In this document: positions 7,898 to 64,000 of the stretch, one piece after another
How the letters are laid out: each line of letters begins with the position of its first letter
How positions within the stretch are numbered: position 1 is the first letter of the stretch
NCBI RefSeq assembly: GCF_058153355.1
Contig: NZ_CM177019.1
Strand: one strand, 5' to 3'
DNA: 64,000 nt
Position numbers and translations under genes: made by a program
Notes under the pieces: generated by a model
The model's input: only the letters and a program-made list of their open reading frames with translations
The model's database searches: none
Told to the model about the DNA's origin: nothing

Positions 7898-9202
<1,305 letters not shown>

Positions 9203-9402
9203 CATGCCTGCAATCTGGGAAACCGGGGTAGAAAAAAACTTGCAGGCCATAACAGTATCTACGTTCAGATTTGGTCGGTGCCAGAGGATTACTCGCCACT
9301 GCGTGGCTCGCCCTGCGGGCCGTTGCTGACGCAACGTTCTCTCGCTTTGCTCGAGTCGAACCTCTCTGCCCCCGGAGGTTCTTATCCTCTTCAGGTCGCA
9401 GA

Positions 9403-11622: not shown

Positions 11623-12831
11623 TTAAAGGGAGCCATGCGCCTCACGCAACATTTTCTGCTCTGGCTGGCGAATCGTCGTAGAAAGCGCCAGTGACAGAAT
11701 CAGCAGGGCGAAAATCACGTAGAATGTCACATAGAATCCGCCAAACAGTGAAGCGATAATCGAACCACAAATGCTGCCGATACCGAAACCGAGGTAAATC
11801 ACACCGTAGTTTTTTGCCAGATTATTTAGGCCGAAGAACTCACTGACCAGTGACGGGAACACAGTGATAGTGCCGCCGAAGTTAAATGCCACGCAGGCAA
11901 TCGCTGCAAAGAACGTCACTGCATTCAATGGGGCAAACAGCAGGGCCGCCATGCCCACCAGCGAAATGACCTGACCAATGGTGATAACACGGATACGGGC
12001 GATTTTGTCAGACAGAATGCCCAGCACCAGACGACCAGAAAGGTTGGCGATGGAAATAACCGTCACAGCATTGGCTGCGGAAATTGCATCAAGATGCGCC
12101 AGACTTTGAGCGATATCTTTCGCCACGCCAATCACATACAGGCCACTCATGCAGGCGGTCAGGAACATAACTGCTAACATCCAGTACTGCGGTTTACGCA
12201 TCGACTCTGCCAGCGTGTAATCCTTCTCCACCACGCCATTGCTGGTTTTCACTTCCTGCTTCGGCGCATCTTTCATTAATGTTGCGCCAAAGACAATCAT
12301 CACCAGTACAATCGCGCCCCAAATAACAAAGGTTTTTTCCAGACCGACCGTTTCCAACAGTTGCGTATCGATAAATTTGAAACCCAGACTACCAAGTCCA
12401 TAAGAACCAATAGCGAACGCAGAGATGAGTCCCTTACGCTCCGGGAACCACTTCACGCAGTTAGAGAGCGTCAACAGGTAACCCGCACCATCCGCCAGAC
12501 CAACCAACACACCGGCGCTTAACCACAGCATCATCAGGTTGTTGGAATGTGCTGTCAGGAAGAAACCTAATCCCAGCAAAATGCCGGAAGCCATAGTGAC
12601 GCGTTTAACACCAAAACGTTCTTGCAATTTGCCCGCAACAGAAGACGAAATTGCCAGCCCCAGACTTAACAAGCCGAAAGAGAAAGCAACCTGGCTTACC
12701 GGAGCCCCCAGCTTGGCAGAAAGCGCGCCGTTAAACAGACTCCAGGTATAAACCGACCCCAGGGCAAACTGGGTAATGATAGTACCGATGAGTGTCAGCC
12801 AGCGAGTACGCTGATAATTTGAAGGTGTCAT
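11623..12831 (-). CDS. yhjX: MFS transporter YhjX (oxalate/formate antiporter family)
   Basis: ORF 11623-12876; recalled start MTPSNYQRTRW at internal ATG gives 402 aa; 12 TM MFS protein. Confidence 0.85.
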   Translation of the reverse strand: MTPSNYQRTRWLTLIGTIITQFALGSVYTWSLFNGALSAKLGAPVSQVAFSFGLLSLGLAISSSVAGKLQERFGVKRVTMASGILLGLGFFLTAHSNNLMMLWLSAGVLVGLADGAGYLLTLSNCVKWFPERKGLISAFAIGSYGLGSLGFKFIDTQLLETVGLEKTFVIWGAIVLVMIVFGATLMKDAPKQEVKTSNGVVEKDYTLAESMRKPQYWMLAVMFLTACMSGLYVIGVAKDIAQSLAHLDAISAANAVTVISIANLSGRLVLGILSDKIARIRVITIGQVISLVGMAALLFAPLNAVTFFAAIACVAFNFGGTITVFPSLVSEFFGLNNLAKNYGVIYLGFGIGSICGSIIASLFGGFYVTFYVIFALLILSLALSTTIRQPEQKMLREAHGSL

Positions 12832-13059: not shown

Positions 13060-13765
13060 TTAAAATCTGGCACTAACCCCCATCGTATACAGATAGTCGC
13101 TATTGTTAGTGGTATTTTCTGCCTGAGATAGCGCCGCATAGGCGGCAATATTTTGATTGAGCAACATATCAGCGCCTAAGGTGACATCCAGCCAGTTGCC
13201 GTTCTGGTTTGTCGCCGTCATCCGGCTTAAGCCTGATTGCGCCTTCCAGATATTCTCGCCAAATTGCTGGTTATAGCTGATTTGCGCCCAGGGTCGGAGA
13301 TCGCCAAGCCGGGAGTCAACACGCCAGCCTAAGGTACTCACACTGGCATGCCATAACGGATCAGTCAGTGTAGTAGTACTGTCGCCAAACTCGTTATACA
13401 TCGAGGTGGTTGTACCATCGTAATGTAATGCCGCGACCGGGCCGGTTGTAACCTGTTCATATAAAGGAAAATTCCAGCCCATACTCATACTGCTGGTCAC
13501 ATCCACAGGGGTTTCTTCCGCCAGATTGACTTCCAGTCCCAGCGCCCTTTGGCTACTTTGAATACGTTGCGACAGAATATCTGTTGTAATCAGGTTGATG
13601 ATCGCTATCCCAGGTGTAGCGCTCTGTGGAATGTCCGGGTTGCGTATCAACGATATATTCTTGTTGCCAGGCGTAAGCTGTGTTGAGAAAAAAGGCACTG
13701 ATTACCACGCTCGCCAGCAGGCTTAACTGCCAGCGACCACCGCTTTTTTTTATGATCATTAACAC
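13060..13765 (-). pseudogene. yhjY: autotransporter beta-domain protein YhjY, apparent +1 frameshift
   Basis: Signal-peptide N-terminus (ORF 13553-13765) and beta-domain C-terminus (ORF 13060-13698) lie in different frames; the junction near 13573-13591 restores a 232-aa protein if one base is removed. Confidence 0.6.
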
Positions 13766-13916: not shown

Positions 13917-14480
13917 ATGGAACGTTGCGGCTGGGTGAGTCAGGACCCGCTTTATATTGCCTACCATGATAATGAGTGGGGCGTGCCTGAAACTGACAGT
14001 AAAAAACTGTTCGAAATGATCTGCCTTGAAGGGCAACAAGCAGGGTTATCGTGGATCACCGTCCTCAAAAAACGCGAAAACTATCGCGCCTGCTTTCATC
14101 AGTTCGATCCGGTGAAGGTGGCTGCAATGCAGGAAGAGGATGTCGAAAGACTGGTACAGGACGCCGGGATTATCCGCCATCGCGGGAAAATTCAGGCAAT
14201 TATTGGTAATGCGCGGGCGTACCTGCAAATGGAACAGAACGGCGAACCGTTTGCCGACTTTGTTTGGTCGTTTGTCAATCATCAACCACAGGTGACACAA
14301 GCCACAACGTTGAGCGAAATCCCTACATCTACGCCCGCCTCCGACGCTCTATCTAAAGCCCTGAAAAAGCGTGGTTTTAAGTTTGTTGGTACCACAATCT
14401 GTTACTCCTTTATGCAGGCATGTGGGCTGGTGAATGATCATGTGGTTGGCTGCTGTTGCTATCCGGGAAATAAACCATGA
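13917..14480 (+). CDS. tag: 3-methyladenine DNA glycosylase I
   Basis: ORF 13680-14480; recalled Tag start MERCGWVSQDPLY at ATG 13917 gives 187 aa. Confidence 0.9.
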   Translation: MERCGWVSQDPLYIAYHDNEWGVPETDSKKLFEMICLEGQQAGLSWITVLKKRENYRACFHQFDPVKVAAMQEEDVERLVQDAGIIRHRGKIQAIIGNARAYLQMEQNGEPFADFVWSFVNHQPQVTQATTLSEIPTSTPASDALSKALKKRGFKFVGTTICYSFMQACGLVNDHVVGCCCYPGNKP

Positions 14481-26782: not shown

Positions 26783-26857
26783 GTAAGCGTCTTATCAGGA
26801 CCGTCTGGCAAATTCCCGATGCTTTGGACAAAGTATCCACCACTAAATTAATAGTGG

Positions 26858-27286
26858 GTGATAAAAATGTCAGATATACAAAAAAATGCCTCTCCGGGAA
26901 GGCCTAAAGGGTGCCTGAATTATCCTCCTGAATTCAAACAACGACTCATAGAAGCATCATTCCAGCCAGGTGTTTCAATTTCCAGACTGGCCCTGGACAA
27001 TGGTATTAATGCCAATCTGTTGTTCAAATGGCGTCAGAAATGGCGGCAGGGGAAGATAAAATTGCCATCATCAGAATCAGGCAGAGAATCTCAGTTAATT
27101 CCTGTCACTATTGATGCCCAACTCCCAACTGCTCCGGCTAATGAGCCACTGACCGCAAGACCGTCAGTAACACCGGAAATACACAGCATCTCCTGTGAGA
27201 TTACGTTCAGAAACGGCACCCTTCGGTTGAACGGGGCAGTGAATGAAAATCTGCTGTCCTTGCTTATACAGGAGCTGAGACGGTGA
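26858..27286 (+). CDS. IS66-family accessory protein TnpA (orfA)
   Basis: 142 aa; small HTH-like first ORF of the IS66 operon; 4-bp overlap with orfB. Confidence 0.8.
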   Translation: MIKMSDIQKNASPGRPKGCLNYPPEFKQRLIEASFQPGVSISRLALDNGINANLLFKWRQKWRQGKIKLPSSESGRESQLIPVTIDAQLPTAPANEPLTARPSVTPEIHSISCEITFRNGTLRLNGAVNENLLSLLIQELRR

Positions 27287-27630
27287 TATCTCTCCCTGCA
27301 GGTTCGCGTATCTGGCTGGTTGCAGGTATCACCGATATGCGAAATGGCTTTAACGGCCTGGCCTCAAAAGTTCAGAACGTCCTGAAGGATGACCCGTTCT
27401 CCGGGCATCTGTTCATCTTCCGCGGACGCCGGGGTGACCAGATAAAAGTGTTGTGGGCTGACAGTGACGGACTGTGCCTCTTCACCAGACGCCTGGAGCG
27501 GGGCCGCTTCGTCTGGCCGGTCACCCGTGACGGCAAGGTGCACCTTACTCCGGCCCAGTTATCCATGCTTCTTGAGGGCATCGACTGGAAACACCCGAAA
27601 CGAACGGAACGCGCTGGCATCCGCATATAA
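27283..27630 (+). CDS. IS66-family accessory protein TnpB (orfB)
   Basis: 115 aa, MISLPAGSRIWLVAGITDMRNGFNGLA..., typical IS66 Orf2. Confidence 0.85.
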   Translation: MISLPAGSRIWLVAGITDMRNGFNGLASKVQNVLKDDPFSGHLFIFRGRRGDQIKVLWADSDGLCLFTRRLERGRFVWPVTRDGKVHLTPAQLSMLLEGIDWKHPKRTERAGIRI

Positions 27631-27649
27631 CCCGTTGTAAAGTGAGGAT

Positions 27650-29221
27650 ATGGACACCTCACTTGCTCATGAGAATGCCCGCCTGCGGGCACTGTTGCAG
27701 ACGCAACAGGACACCATCCGCCAGATGGCGAAATACAACCGCCTGCTCTCACAGCGGGTGGCGGCTTATGCTTCCGAAATCAACCGGCTGAAGGCGCTGG
27801 TTGCAAAACTGCAGCGCATGCAGTTCGGTAAAAGCTCAGAAAAACTTCGTGCAAAAACCGAACGGCAGATACAGGAAGCACAGGAGCGAATCAGCGCTCT
27901 TCAGGAAGAAATGGCGGAAACGCTGGGTGAGCAATATGACCCGGTACTGCCATCTCCCCTGCGCCAGTCTTCAGCCCGTAAACCGTTACCTGCCTCACTT
28001 CCCCGTGAAACCCGGGTCATCCGTCCGGAAGAGGAATGCTGCCCGGCCTGTGGTGGCGAACTCAGTTCTCTGGGATGTGATGTGTCAGAGCAACTGGAGC
28101 TTATCAGCAGCGCCTTTAAGGTTATCGAAACACAACGTCCGAAACTGGCCTGTTGCCGGTGCGACCATATCGTGCAGGCTCCGGTGCCTTCAAAACCCAT
28201 TGCACGCAGTTATGCCGGAGCGGGGCTTCTGGCCCATGTTGTCGCTGGAAAATATGCAGACCATCTGCCGTTATACCGCCAGTCAGAAATATACCGTCGT
28301 CAGGGCGTGGAGCTGAGCCGTGCCACACTGGGGCGCTGGACAGGTGCTGTTGCTGAACTGCTGGAACCGCTGTATGACATCCTGCGCCAGTATGTGCTGA
28401 TGCCCGGTAAAGTCCATGCCGATGATATCCCCGTTCCGGTCCAGGAGCCGGGCAGCGGTAAAACAAGGACTGCCCGGCTGTGGGTCTACGTTCGTGATGA
28501 CCGTAACGCCGGTTCGGAAATGCCTCCGGCGGTCTGGTTCGCGTACAGCCCGGACCGGAAAGGTATCCATCCACAGAATCATCTGGCCGGTTACAGCGGA
28601 GTGCTTCAGGCCGATGCTTACGGTGGTTACCGGGCGTTGTACGAATCCGGCAGAATAACGGAAGCCGCATGTATGGCTCATGCCCGGAGAAAAATCCACG
28701 ATGTGCATGCAAGAGTGCCCACCGACATCACCACGGAAGCCCTGCAGCGTATCGGTGAACTGTATGCCATCGAGGCAGAGGTCCGGGGCTGTTCAGCAGA
28801 ACAGCGTCTGGCGGCAAGAAAAGCCAGAGCCGCGCCACTGATGCAGTCACTGTATGACTGGATACAGCAACAGATGAAAACACTGTCGCGTCACTCGGAC
28901 ACGGCAAAAGCGTTCGCATACCTGCTGAAACAGTGGGATGCACTGAACGTGTACTGCAGTAATGGCTGGGTGGAAATCGACAACAACATCGCAGAGAACG
29001 CCTTACGGGGAGTGGCCGTAGGCCGGAAAAACTGGCTCTTCGCGGGTTCTGACAGCGGTGGTGAACATGCTGCGGTGTTGTACTCGCTGATCGGCACATG
29101 CCGTCTGAACAATGTGGAGCCAGAAAAGTGGCTGCGTTACGTCATTGAACATATCCAGGACTGGCCGGCAAACCGGGTACGCGATCTGTTGCCCTGGAAA
29201 GTTGATCTGAGCTCTCAGTAA
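27650..29221 (+). CDS. IS66-family transposase (orfC)
   Basis: 523 aa; N-terminal coiled coil/leucine zipper, CxxC zinc motifs (CCPACGG, CCRCDH), DDE domain. Confidence 0.88.
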
Positions 29222-29312
29222 ATATCAATACGGTTCTGGCGAGCCGCTTACATATTTTGTTGTCCATCACAGTATTCCTTTCATTCCTGAATGTGTAAGA
29301 GCTTTATGTTGC

Positions 29313-42780: not shown

Positions 42781-44029
<1,249 letters not shown>

Positions 44030-44059
44030 CATGCCTGCAATCTGGGAAACCGGGGTAGA

Positions 44060-44090
<31 letters not shown>

Positions 44091-45831: not shown

Positions 45832-46830
45832 ATGAAAGTCACATTTGAGCAGTTAAAAGCAGCCTTTAATCGGGTCTTAATTTCACGCGGTGTTGACAGC
45901 GAAACGGCTGATGCCTGTGCAGAGATGTTCGCCCGCACCACCGAATCCGGTGTTTATTCTCACGGTGTTAACCGCTTCCCACGCTTCATCCAACAATTGG
46001 ATAATGGCGATATCATTCCTGACGCCCAAGCCAAACGTATAACCAGCCTCGGCGCAATTGAACAGTGGGACGCCCAGCGTTCGATCGGTAACCTGACAGC
46101 GAAAAAGATGATGGATCGCGCCATTGAACTGGCTGCCGATCACGGTATTGGTCTGGTGGCGTTGCGTAATGCCAACCACTGGATGCGCGGCGGCAGCTAC
46201 GGCTGGCAGGCGGCGGAAAAAGGCTATATTGGCATTTGCTGGACCAACTCCATCGCCGTAATGCCGCCGTGGGGCGCAAAAGAGTGTCGCATCGGCACTA
46301 ACCCGCTGATCGTCGCCATTCCTTCTACCCCAATCACCATGGTCGATATGTCGATGTCGATGTTTTCCTACGGCATGTTAGAAGTTAACCGCCTTGCAGG
46401 TCGTCAGCTCCCGGTCGATGGCGGCTTTGACGATGAAGGCAATCTCACCAAAGAACCTGGTGTAATCGAGAAAAATCGCCGTATTTTGCCAATGGGTTAC
46501 TGGAAAGGTTCCGGTATGTCGATCGTATTGGATATGATCGCTACTCTTCTTTCTGACGGCGCGTCAGTTGCTGAAGTCACCCAGGATAACAGCGACGAAT
46601 ACGGTGTTTCGCAAATCTTTATCGCCATTGAAGTGGACAAGCTTATCGACGGCCCCACCCGCGATGCCAAGCTGCAACGCATCATGGATTATGTTACTAC
46701 CGCTGAACGCGCCGATGAAAACCAGGCCATTCGCTTACCCGGCCACGAATTTACCACCCTGCTGGCAGAAAACCGCCGTAACGGTATTACCGTTGATGAC
46801 AGCGTATGGGCAAAAATCCAGGCGTTATAA
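45832..46830 (+). CDS. yiaK: 2,3-diketo-L-gulonate reductase
   Basis: 332 aa Ldh_2 family oxidoreductase; first gene of the operon. Confidence 0.88.
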
Positions 46831-47426: not shown

Positions 47427-47901
47427 ATGAAAAAAAATACTTGAAGCAATACTGGCGATTAATCTCGCCGTACTTTCCTGTATTGTGTTTATAAACATTA
47501 TTTTAAGATATGGTTTTCAGACAAGTATTTTATCTGTAGATGAATTGTCGCGTTATTTATTTGTCTGGTTAACCTTTATTGGCGCGATTGTGGCTTTTAT
47601 GGATAACGCCCACGTTCAGGTTACCTTTCTGGTGGAGAAACTCTCCCCCGCGTGGCAGCGACGAGTCGCTCTGGTTACCCACGCCTTAATATTATTTATT
47701 TGTGGCGCACTGGCCTGGGGCGCAACGCTAAAAACAATTCAGGACTGGAGCGATTATTCACCGATCCTCGGCTTGCCCATCGGCCTGATGTATGCCGCTT
47801 GTCTGCCCACCAGCCTCGTTATCGCATTCTTTGAGCTGCGCCTTTTATATCAACTCATCACGCGTAGCAATTCTCTAACGCCGCCACCGCAAGGAGCTTA
47901 A
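47427..47901 (+). pseudogene. yiaM: TRAP transporter small permease YiaM, apparent +1 frameshift in A-run at codon 2-4
   Basis: ATG 47427 followed by 8 A (47430-47437) leads to a stop at 47442-47444; with 7 A the frame reads [15 protein letters not shown]... continuous with ORF 47485-47901. Confidence 0.65.
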
Positions 47902-52339: not shown

Positions 52340-53192
52340 TCATCCGTTAGGGATTTATGAAAAAGCGCTGGCGAAAGATCTCTCCTGGCCGGAGCGGCTG
52401 GTGCTGGCAAAAAGCTGCGGTTTTGATTTTGTCGAAATGTCGGTGGATGAAACCGACGAGCGTCTGTCGCGCCTTGACTGGAGCGCCGCACAAAGGACTT
52501 CGCTGGTTGCCGCGATGATCGAAACGGGTGTTGGGATCCCGTCGATGTGCCTGTCCGCACATCGTCGTTTTCCCTTTGGTAGCCGTGACGACGCGGCACG
52601 CCAGCGAGCACGGGAGATCATGAGTAAAGCAATTCGTCTGGCGCGCGATCTCGGTATTCGCACCATTCAACTGGCGGGCTACGACGTCTATTACGAAGCC
52701 CATGACGAAGGCACGCAGCAACGTTTTGCCGAAGGGCTGGCGTGGGCGGTTGAACAGGCAGCCGCCGCGCAGGTGATGCTGGCGGTGGAGATTATGGATA
52801 CTGCGTTTATGAACTCCATCAGCAAATGGAAAAAATGGGACGAGATACTCGCTTCGCCGTGGTTCACCGTCTACCCGGACGTCGGCAACCTTAGCGCCTG
52901 GGGCAATGATGTTCCCGCTGAACTGAAACTGGGCATTGACCGTATCGCCGCCATCCACCTGAAAGATACCCAGCCAGTGACCGAGCATAGCCCCGGACAG
53001 TTCCGCGACGTGCCGTTTGGCGAAGGCTGCGTCGATTTCGTTGGTATCTTCAAAACGCTGCATGAACTGAACTATCGCGGATCATTTCTGATTGAGATGT
53101 GGACCGAAAAAGCCAAAGAGCCGGTGCTGGAGATTATTCAGGCGCGGCGCTGGATTGAAGCGCGTATGCAGGAGGCCGGATTTATATGTTAG
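52332..53192 (+). CDS. sgbU: L-ribulose-5-phosphate 3-epimerase
   Basis: ORF 52299-53192; start [12 protein letters not shown] at GTG 52332 gives 286 aa; xylose-isomerase-like TIM barrel. Confidence 0.88.
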
Positions 53193-53680
53193 AGCGATTG
53201 AAAGCCGACGTGCTGGCGGCGAATCTGGCGCTTTATCGTCGCTATGCAGAAATTGGCGGTATTGTGCATACCCACTCGCGCCACGCCACCATCTGGTCAC
53301 AGGCCGGGCTGGATCTCCCCGCCTGGGGCACCACGCACGCCGATTATTTCTATGGTGCCATCCCCTGCACGCGACAGATGACCGCAGAGGAGATTAACGG
53401 CGAATATGAATATCAGACCGGCGAAGTGATCATTGAAACTTTCGAAGAACGCGGCAGGAGTCCGGCACAAATCCCGGCGGTATTGGTGCATTCTCACGGT
53501 CCGTTCGCCTGGGGCAATAACGCCGCCGATGCGGTGCATAATGCCGTGGTACTCGAAGAGTGCGCCTATATGGGCCTGTTCTCGCGCCAGCTTGCGCCGC
53601 AGCTTCCTGCGATGCAAAACGAACTTCTGGATAAGCATTACCTGCGTAAGCATGGGGCCAATGCCTATTACGGGCAGTAA
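53186..53680 (+). CDS. sgbE: L-ribulose-5-phosphate 4-epimerase SgbE with 67-codon in-frame internal deletion
   Basis: 164 aa instead of about 231; N-terminus [16 protein letters not shown] joins directly to [17 protein letters not shown], omitting the conserved N-terminal class II aldolase segment. Confidence 0.75.
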
Positions 53681-56163: not shown

Positions 56164-58134
56164 ATGAACATTTCGGAAGTCGATCTGCATAAACTGACGG
56201 TCAGCGATCCGTTCCTCGGTCAGTACCAACAACTGGTCCGCGACGTGGTGATTCCTTATCAGTGGGATGCCTTGAACGATCGTATCCCAGAAGCGGAACC
56301 CAGCCATGCGATTGAAAACTTTCGCATTGCCGCAGGACTGCAAGACGGTGAATTTTACGGGATGGTGTTTCAGGACAGCGACGTCGCCAAATGGCTGGAA
56401 GCGGTAGCCTGGTCGCTGTGCCAGAAGCCGGATGCCGAACTGGAAAAAACTGCTGACGAGGTAATCGAACTGGTCGCTTCCGCCCAGTGCGAAGATGGCT
56501 ATCTCAATACTTACTTTACGGTAAAAGCGCCCGAAGAACGCTGGAGCAATCTGGCGGAGTGTCATGAACTTTACTGCGCCGGTCATCTGATTGAAGCCGG
56601 AGTCGCCTTCTTCCAGGCCACGGGCAAGCGGCGCTTGCTGGAAGTGGTTTGCCGTCTGGCCGATCATATCGACAGCGTATTTGGTCCAGGTGAAAGTAAG
56701 TTACACGGTTATCCTGGTCATCCGGAAATTGAACTGGCACTGATGCGCCTGTATGAAGTGACCGAAGAGCCGCGCTACCTGGCGCTGACGAACTATTTTG
56801 TCGAACAGCGTGGTGCGCAACCGCACTATTACGACTAGGAATATGAAAAGCGCGGGCAGACCTCGCACTGGCACACCTACGGCCCGGCGTGGATGGTGAA
56901 AGACAAAGCCTACAGCCAGGCACATTTGCCCATCGCACAGCAGCAAACCGCCATTGGTCACGCGGTACGTTTTGTCTACCTGATGACCGGCGTCGCGCAT
57001 CTCGCGCGTTTAAGTCACGATGAAAGCAAGCGTCAGGACTGCCTGCGGCTGTGGAACAATATGGCCCAGCGTCAGTTATATATTACCGGCGGCATTGGCT
57101 CACAAAGCAGCGGCGAAGCGTTCAGCAGCGATTACGATCTGCCGAATGACACGGTATACGCCGAAAGCTGTGCTTCCATCGGCCTGATGATGTTCGCCCG
57201 GCGAATGCTGGAAATGGAAGGCGACAGTCACTATGCCGATGTGATGGAGCGCGCACTGTACAACACCGTGCTCGGCGGCATGGCGCTGGATGGCAAACAT
57301 TTCTTCTATGTGAATCCGCTGGAAGTACATCCAAAATCGCTGAAATTCAACCATATCTACGATCACGTTAAGCCGATCCGCCAGCGTTGGTTTGGTTGCG
57401 CTTGTTGTCCGCCAAATATCGCCCGCGTGCTAACCTCGATTGGTCATTATCTCTACACGCCGCGTGAAGATGCGTTGTATATCAACATCTACGCAGGAAA
57501 CAGCATGGAAGTGCCGGTAGAAAATGGCACGCTGCGTCTGCGGGTTAGCGGAAACTATCCGTGGCAGGAACAGGTGACAATTGCGGTTGAATCGCCCCAG
57601 CCGGTGCGTCATACGCTGGCTTTACGTCTGCCGGACTGGTGCACACAGCCGCAGATTACATTGAATGGGGAAGAGGTCGAGCAGGATATTCGTAAAGGGT
57701 ATTTGCACATTACCCGCGAATGGCAGGAGGGCGACACGCTGAATCTGACTTTGCCAATGCCGGTACGTCGCGTTTACGGTAACCCGCTGGTGCGTCACGT
57801 CGCCGGAAAAGTGGCGATTCAGCGCGGCCCGCTGGTGTATTGCCTGGAACAGGCCGACAACGGCGAGTCACTGCATAACCTGTGGCTGCCCGCCGATGCG
57901 CCATTTACGACATTTGAAGGTAATGGATTGTTCCGCCATAAGATCTTAATCCAGGCACCGGGTTACCGGTATGAACAGAGCAATCCAGAGCAGCAACCGC
58001 TGTGGCATTACGACAGCGCGCCAGCCAAACGCCAGCCGCAAACTCTGACATTTATCCCGTGGTTTAGCTGGGCTAACCGGGGTGAAGGCGAAATGCGGAT
58101 CTGGGTGAATGAGGAAAACCAGTGCCATCCGTAG
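56164..58134 (+). pseudogene. GH127-like (DUF1680, beta-L-arabinofuranosidase family) glycoside hydrolase interrupted by in-frame TAG
   Basis: ORFs 56116-56838 and 56893-58134 are in the same frame, separated by TAG at 56836-56838; combined about 655 aa; RBS aaggag before ATG 56164. Confidence 0.7.
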
Positions 58135-62947: not shown

Positions 62948-64000
62948 TCAGAACAGCCCCAACGGTTTATCTGAGTAGCTCACCAGCAGGCACTTGGTTT
63001 GCTGATAATGCTCAAGCATCATCTTATGGGTTTCGCGCCCAATACCCGACTGCTTATAGCCACCAAACGCCGCATGTGTCGGGTAAGCGTGATAACAGTT
63101 GGTCCACACTCGCCCGGCCTGAATGCCGCGCCCCATCTTATAGGCCAGATTACCGTTGCGGCTCCAGACACCAGCCCCCAGACCATATTGCGTGTCGTTC
63201 GCCAGCTCCAGCGCTTCTTCCATCGTTTTGAAGGTGGTTACCGCCAGCACCGGACCAAAAATTTCTTCCTGGAACACGCGCATATTATTCTGACCAAACA
63301 GAATCGTCGGTTCGAGGTAGTAGCCGTCTTTCAGTTCGCCTTCCAGCAGCTTGCGCCGCCCACCGGTGAGCACGTCTGCGCCCTCTTTTTTACCGATATC
63401 AATGTAGTTGAGGATGGTTTCCAGTTGCCCGTGCGAAACTTGCGCCCCCATTTGCGTCACGCTATCGAGCGGGTTACCGCTGCGAATGCTTTCGACACGG
63501 CGGATGGCGCGTTCCATAAAGCGTTCGTAGATAGACTCCTGCACTAAAGCACGGCTTGGACAGGTGCAAACTTCGCCCTGGTTAAAGGCAAACAGTGCAA
63601 AGCCTTCCAGCGCTTTATCGAAAAAGGCATCTTCTTCATCCATCACATCAGCAAAGAAGATATTGGCGACTTGCCGCCCAGCTCCAGGGTTACCGGAATA
63701 ATATTTTGCGTGGCGTACTGCATAATTTGTTGGCCCACTTCCGTTGAGCCGGTAAACGCCACTTTAGCGATGCGTTTCGAGGTCGCCAGATATTCGCCAA
63801 TTTCCCCACCAGCACCGTTGACCACGTTCACCACGCCCGGCGGCAGTAAATCACCGACGATTTCCATTAGCAGCAGTACAGAAAGCGGGGTAAGACGTGC
63901 GGGTTTCAGCACCACACAGTTGCCCGCCGCCAGCGCGGGAGCCATTTTCCAGCTCGCCATCAGCAGCGGGAAGTTCCACGGAATAATCTGCCCCACCACG
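62948..64000 (-). pseudogene. aldB: aldehyde dehydrogenase B, 3' portion, with -1 frameshift
   Basis: C-terminal 232 aa (ORF 62948-63646) and upstream segment (ORF 63643-63999) are in different frames; the frame breaks after LELGGKSP where the plus strand reads gatattggcga (TT at 63663-63664) instead of an expected TTT; gene continues beyond the window. Confidence 0.7.

Follow-up and report, generated by a model that had tools for sequence, protein, structure and literature searches.

A one-base insertion interrupts yhjY, the gene of a small autotransporter-type barrel protein, in a rare Escherichia coli lineage

Introduction

Why does the DNA between yhjX and tag in an Escherichia coli chromosome encode a signal peptide in one reading frame and an outer-membrane barrel in another? 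The question is posed by a stretch of 64,000 nucleotides from contig NZ_CM177019.1 of RefSeq assembly GCF_058153355.1 (hereafter, the window), in which a first-pass annotation, made from the letters of the sequence, had recognized yhjY and attributed its two frames to an extra base (aacAgat). The product of intact alleles, YhjY, is a small, conserved, uncharacterised outer-membrane barrel protein, listed for the K-12 gene b3548 as 'Uncharacterized protein YhjY' (UniProt P37663). Frameshift pseudogenes are known from decaying Escherichia and Shigella genomes rich in insertion sequences. Here, the lesion is described, its presence in other assemblies is followed, and the readings under which the locus would be an assembly error, a recoded gene, a phase-variable gene or a gene under repair are weighed against that of ordinary decay.

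Results

The gene and its lesion

The locus is on the minus strand and runs from 13759 to 13060, with yhjX (11623-12831, minus strand) on one side and tag (13917-14480, plus strand), followed by yiaC and bisC, on the other. Annotated genomes have the same order, yhjX-yhjY-tag, with yhjY and tag on opposite strands, and RefSeq names the orthologous 699-bp CDS at this place 'yhjY: autotransporter outer membrane beta-barrel domain-containing protein', in agreement with the earlier identification of the gene. Annotated yhjY alleles match the window gene with 100% coverage and 96.8-98.4% nucleotide identity; against a 699-bp intact allele, the 700 bp of the window copy (13060..13759) show 98.4% identity over the full length and one gap.

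Alignment to two annotated intact alleles (699 bp, 232 aa) places the sole gap column at 13582, within the interval 13570-13595 to which the frameshift had been assigned, where the window reads ACAAC[A]GATAT and the intact genes read ACAAC-GATAT. The inserted base, an A on the coding strand (T on the plus strand), falls between codon 59 (AAC) and codon 60 (GAT) and is flanked by C and G, with no homopolymer or short repeat at the site. Deletion of base 13582 yields exactly 232 aa, the annotated length, where about 232 had been expected. The window gene thus shares with intact b3548-type yhjY the locus, the repaired length and the PF03797 match, and differs from it by the additional base at codon 60 and a stop after 68 codons; having no continuous 232-codon frame, it is a pseudogene allele of the yhjY orthologue.

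Two reading frames in place of one

Translation from the ATG at 13759 gives 68 codons closed by a TAG at 13555-13553 (frame 13553..13759, minus strand), of which 59 are native (MIIKK...HQPDYN; MIIKKSGGRWQLSLLASVVISAFFLNTAYAWQQEYIVDTQPGHSTERYTWDSDHQPDYN) and the last nine encode RYSVATYSK. The product would consist of a signal peptide (residues 1-30), 29 native mature residues and nine aberrant ones. The predicted Sec signal peptide, encoded by codons 1-30 (13670..13759, minus strand), is MIIKKSGGRWQLSLLASVVISAFFLNTAYA, cut before WQQ; it was recognized by eye from a basic start (KK/R), a 14-residue hydrophobic core, LSLLASVVISAFFL, and an A-x-A motif, AYA, immediately followed by the W of the mature protein. 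The first helix of the AlphaFold model described below (residues 8-29) lies in this predicted signal peptide.

The barrel frame (13060..13701, minus strand), which carries residues 60-232 of the repaired protein, is open only downstream of a TAA at 13704-13702, encodes native YhjY from ...DILSQRIQSSQRALGLEVN onward and ends at the normal yhjY stop (13060-13062). Its free-standing ORF starts at a GTG (13698) and comprises 212 aa, with no signal peptide; the same ORF, with a Pfam PF03797 match, has been picked by the gene caller of the Logan collection. The insertion falls in the first turn of a predicted alpha-helix (residues 58-72, NDILSQRIQSSQRAL; 13543..13588, minus strand), which was delineated from the AlphaFold model and the family alignment and contains the conserved motif 'DILAERI'. 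Further downstream, the Pfam autotransporter beta-domain match (repaired residues 88-209; 13132..13497, minus strand) is now out of frame relative to the signal peptide. With the lesion at codon 60, the first-pass annotation was right to place it between signal peptide and beta-domain, and erred only in the extent of the overlap, for which it gave about 13573-13591: the open frames overlap from 13553 to 13701 (149 nt). A promoter and terminator scan returned no more sites than were obtained with shuffled sequence.

The protein that is interrupted

The repaired protein matches the autotransporter beta-domain PF03797 with E=5e-12, residues 88-209 corresponding to profile positions 119-253 of 255, and matches NCBIfam TIGR01414 at positions 285-432 of 432 only. 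An AlphaFold model based on a 32-sequence alignment (mean pLDDT 72.6) consists of a helix (8-29), a disordered segment (30-57), a second helix (58-72) and about eight strands (88-230). Foldseek comparison of this model gave weak, generic outer-membrane barrel matches only, the best being the BrkA beta-domain with a TM score of 0.42, a result compatible with a 12-stranded autotransporter barrel for YhjY but no proof of one; a search of solved structures by sequence found no YhjY relative. In a published review, too, YhjY came out only as a "deformed or broken barrel" (PMC7383365).

Searched exhaustively, 1.84 billion representative proteins contained just 111 relatives of YhjY, a very small family. 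The short relatives (210-240 aa) have a conserved N-terminal motif, AWQQEYI...ERYTWDSDHQPxYxDILAERI, and, like YhjY, only the C-terminal ~57% of the autotransporter barrel model; across the 32 sequences of the family alignment, the C-terminal F232 does not vary. The long relatives (~660-700 aa), in which the beta-domain is complete, are GDSL-lipase/esterase autotransporters, the type to which Pseudomonas aeruginosa EstA and Salmonella ApeE belong. Their C-terminal ~150 residues align with YhjY ~89-232 at 29-44% identity and, as in YhjY, end in an invariant Phe. They differ from YhjY in having a GDSL passenger of ~350 aa, of which YhjY has no counterpart, and in matching the beta-domain profile at positions 2-254 of 255 rather than 119-253; YhjY, for its part, has its own conserved N-terminal motif, and its model shows about eight strands rather than 12. 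This kinship explains the old "lipase" label of the protein, which has also been paired with Photorhabdus Lip-1 in the literature (PMC6637259).

Measured against a classical (type Va) autotransporter, YhjY has an N-terminal Sec signal peptide, as judged by inspection and from the modelled helix 8-29, and a C-terminal beta-signal with an aromatic end (...YTMGVSARF, F232). In the place of a passenger, only ~27 residues (31-57, low pLDDT) separate the cleavage site from the linker helix, and instead of a complete beta-domain (~250-280 aa, 12 strands) there are partial profile matches and about eight modelled strands. YhjY is thus not a classical autotransporter but a protein with a partial barrel of the autotransporter type and without a passenger; the label 'autotransporter' of the first-pass annotation holds at the level of the domain (PF03797) and fails for the protein as a whole, which lacks the passenger and matches the β-domain model over its C-terminal ~57% only.

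The inserted base is genuine

The window spans three repeated insertion sequences and so probably derives from a long-read or hybrid assembly, of a kind that can carry indel errors, and two other frameshifts in it are located in short homopolymers (A7 to A8 in yiaM, T3 to T2 in aldB). The extra base could accordingly be taken for a sequencing or assembly error in an isolate whose true yhjY is intact. This explanation is very improbable. The inserted base is outside any homopolymer, and it is included in Logan contig SRR31441161_140 (17,577 bp), which was built directly from reads and is 100% identical to the window over all stretches retrieved (12,464, 10,334 and 14,975 bp). The contig perhaps stems from the read set of the window's own assembly and hence may not represent an independent isolate; whether or not the read set is the same, an assembly-only artefact is ruled out. 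The exact 212-aa ORF occurs on two Logan contigs, and its presence in this public protein collection again attests to the frameshift, since the ORF requires it; among the candidate products, only this ORF had an exact match there, and the 68-aa and 70-aa N-terminal fragments and the 142-aa fragment from an internal ATG had none. Two more assemblies from this lineage, Logan SRR28786219_123 and NCBI GCA_043012465.1, have the base as well. Finally, the yiaM lesion is common to the window and the independent assembly GCA_015332025.1, so that indels in the window are not generally artefacts. The insertion at 13582 is genuine.

The allele is private to one lineage

Two observations had been named at the outset as speaking against a frameshift, namely, an intact frame in the reads, which the read-based assembly does not have, and a two-frame layout in reference alleles. 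The latter was sought with a megablast of the 761-bp yhjY region against 5,426 complete RefSeq E. coli genomes, which detected yhjY in 5,422 of them (99.9%); among the matches listed, each is 760 bases long, one fewer than the 761-base query. A 35-mer centred on the insertion, from which megablast can seed only when the insertion is present, matched 0 of the 5,426 complete genomes, and a 32-mer across the insertion had no match among the GTDB species representatives; the source genome of the window belongs to neither collection. Among 60 evenly sampled genomes, 58 matches span 760 bases, as expected without the insertion; of the remaining two, one spans 761 bases on account of a different indel, and the other is in a laboratory strain with an interrupted yhjY.

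The best complete genome is 98.8% identical to the window over 12 kb around yhjY, and proteins exactly matching those of the window are labelled E. coli and come from a small number of draft assemblies (EGO8354604/606 and HFG3511316 among them). The allele with the additional A is private to one rare E. coli lineage. Contigs encoding an identical BisC fall into two groups, one with the 212-aa ORF (n=5) and one with intact yhjY (n=18), as judged from one example inspected per group. The intact-yhjY example was considered as the immediate ancestor and rejected, being only 99.07% identical.

The repaired YhjY is identical to the protein of the lineage represented by Logan SRR36619567, the DNA of which is 96.3% identical in this region. 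All 18 substitutions between the two yhjY genes are synonymous (18/18), which indicates strong purifying selection on YhjY across Escherichia. Since the window allele has acquired no further amino-acid changes, stops or indels, the insertion looks evolutionarily recent from the sequence comparison.

Recoding and phase variation

A gene split between two overlapping frames might still be expressed at full length, through programmed +1 ribosomal frameshifting or transcriptional slippage across the overlap. The 149 nt shared by the open frames offer room for such an event, and AGA, the zero-frame codon directly behind the insertion, is seldom used for Arg in E. coli; codons of low usage can promote +1 shifts. 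Recoding is nevertheless scarcely credible here. Recoding sites are usually conserved among orthologues, as the two-frame layout is in +1 genes of the prfB type, and the other genomes have a plain continuous frame, with the layout of the window in 0 of 5,426. Inspection of AAC AGA TAT revealed neither a shift-prone codon pair with a stimulator, nor a slippery motif or an upstream Shine-Dalgarno-like element, and AAC is unable to re-pair in the +1 frame (ACA). Of the homopolymers, the T6 tract (codons 23-24, TTT TTT; 13688..13693, minus strand) is too short for appreciable RNA-polymerase slippage, and the A8 tract (codons 3-6; 13744..13751, minus strand) is upstream of the in-frame TAA of the barrel frame, so that slippage there is unable to rescue yhjY.

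In phase-variable genes, the switching indel occurs in a homopolymer or tandem repeat, whereas base 13582 is a lone A between C and G. As the primary lesion is outside repeats, classical phase variation was rejected as its cause. The difference from repeat-mediated phase variation extends to the T-run, which is only six bases long. In assemblies of very close isolates, the tract reads T6 (window and SRR31441161) or T5 (SRR28786219 and GCA_043012465.1), a single variant of a short tract at the assembly level, and no sign of recurrent switching was seen.

A second change restores the frame in sister assemblies

The T5 variant deserves separate consideration. Over 10,525 bp, the window and Logan SRR28786219_123 are identical but for one base, namely, the T6-to-T5 change at 13688-13693; the NCBI third-party assembly GCA_043012465.1 has the same change and, in addition, one SNP in 14,975 bp. 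In both, T5 combined with the insertion 106 nt downstream produces an uninterrupted 232-codon ORF in which residues 25-59 are recoded as STQLTPGNKNISLIRNPDIPQSATPGIAIINLITT. The arrangement resembles the +1/-1 intragenic pairs of the classical rII frameshift-suppressor experiments, the sister isolate pairing the +1 with a -1 in the T-run upstream and a recoded stretch between them.

These data admit a history in two steps, possibly selected, in which the +1 at 13582 was later suppressed by a -1 slip in T6; the window would then represent an OFF intermediate of a barrel that is still wanted. That a near-identical isolate differs in this region by T6-to-T5 alone, that a second assembly shares the T5, and that both encode the uninterrupted 232-aa ORF are all in accord with such a history. 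Furthermore, T6 is the sole run of at least six identical bases within the 149-nt stretch where a -1 rescues the frame, compared with 77 such runs in the 64-kb window (which scales to several thousand per genome), so that a neutral indel in this very run between near-identical isolates looks improbable a priori (by our own estimate, below about 1%) and hints at selection for frame restoration. Other observations weigh in the opposite direction: the recoding removes both the AYA cleavage site before W and the family motif WQQEYI..YTWDSDHQPxY, so that the restored protein may be non-functional; PGAP calls no CDS at the T5 locus; the two T5 assemblies perhaps come from one read set; and a six-base tract is short for true phase variation. 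On balance, such toggling of the frame is unlikely, and it is doubtful that the +1 (13582) and the -1 (13688-13693) constitute a selected intragenic suppressor pair through which the barrel frame was lost and then regained with 35 recoded residues. The sister assemblies do suggest that the locus may not simply be decaying.

Codon 21 of yhjY (~13697-13699) is one codon upstream of T6. The same synonymous change in this codon, YhjY S21S, has been reported in 5 of 12 E. coli populations in an evolution study (bioRxiv 10.1101/2023.01.13.524028), which may point to a local hot spot of mutation or to a regulatory site at this position.

Other damage in the window

Scored against the annotated strain EC42405, six of the ~55 genes in the window are damaged (yhjY, yiaM, a GH127 glycoside hydrolase gene, sgbE, aldB and yiaA), and three insertion-sequence copies are present. 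In yiaM, the expansion of A7 to A8 at 47431-47438, ten bases after the ATG, shifts the frame; the lesion is common to GCA_015332025.1 and Logan SRR31441161 and is therefore real. The start of the gene now reads ATG AAA AAA AAT ACT TGA, and PGAP and the Logan caller choose downstream starts (154 and 138 aa). The GH127 gene (56164-58134) has a nonsense codon, TAG at 56836-56838, in position 225 of 656 and is split into ORFs of 224 and 413 aa; the N-terminal fragment is found on 12 Logan contigs, so that the lesion extends more widely than the one in yhjY. The araD-like gene sgbE (L-ribulose-5-phosphate 4-epimerase) has a 190-bp deletion at ~53186-53233, by which it is deprived of its 5' 235 nt; a 164-aa ORF remains, annotated as EGO8354242.1 in GCA_015332025.1. 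Along with the yiaM change, the GH127 and sgbE lesions recur in the independent GCA_015332025.1 and in SRR31441161. The aldB gene, which runs off the window end, is frameshifted by a one-base deletion at 63665 (ATATTTGG to ATATTGG).

The sixth gene, yiaA, is interrupted 16 nt from its start by an IS66-family element of 2,469 bp (26783-29251; a TnpA-like protein of 142 aa and a transposase of 523 aa) with an 8-bp target-site duplication, and a hybrid 152-aa ORF reads from the end of the element into yiaA. The other two insertion sequences are IS621-like (IS110-family) copies, 100% identical to each other and absent from EC42405. One (7969-9262) is in a repeat region between dppA and tRNA-Pro, beside eptB, and the other (42796-44089) is downstream of avtA; their 326-aa transposase matches the NCBIfam family 'IS110 family RNA-guided transposase'. 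A 6-bp tandem duplication (CGATGT) at 46358-46363 in yiaK is in frame and adds two codons relative to EC42405.

Over the 64 kb examined, the yhjY frameshift is one among several gene inactivations in a lineage that seems to accumulate them. Like decaying Escherichia and Shigella genomes, the window has a single-base indel in a conserved chromosomal gene beside inactivated genes and insertion sequences; in contrast to Shigella, its proteins are labelled E. coli, and the likeness extends over 64 kb. A Shigella origin, to which the insertion sequences and the best complete-genome identity of only 98.8% had pointed, finds no support in these labels.

Discussion

The reading favoured here, to which we assign a probability of roughly 0.85, is that a recent one-base insertion made yhjY an ordinary pseudogene in one rare E. 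coli lineage, in keeping with the local pattern of gene decay. The allele is probably a functional null, because the signal peptide is no longer in frame with the predicted linker helix, the β-strands and the C-terminal Phe. A 68-residue product would be made, exported and then degraded; the conserved DILxxRI helix, the ~8 predicted beta-strands and the C-terminal ...GVSARF are in the other frame and would have no export signal; and a restart at the GTG (13698) would give a 212-aa product confined to the cytoplasm. Loss of function is predicted here from the topology of the protein.

Should the suppressor pair nevertheless be true, the YhjY barrel would give a fitness benefit in the niche of these isolates, and either the conserved N-terminal motif and the canonical cleavage site would be dispensable or the tract would act as a crude on/off switch.

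Under the preferred reading of simple inactivation, the locus is to be annotated as one frameshifted pseudogene and not as two small ORFs. In other respects it is ordinary, a lineage-private insertion amid other lesions and insertion sequences that bears on no open mechanistic question. With it, a core E. coli gene without an assigned function gains a further natural knockout, and natural yhjY nulls, together with the frame-restored sister allele, could be used to probe the role of YhjY and the need for its N-terminal motif.
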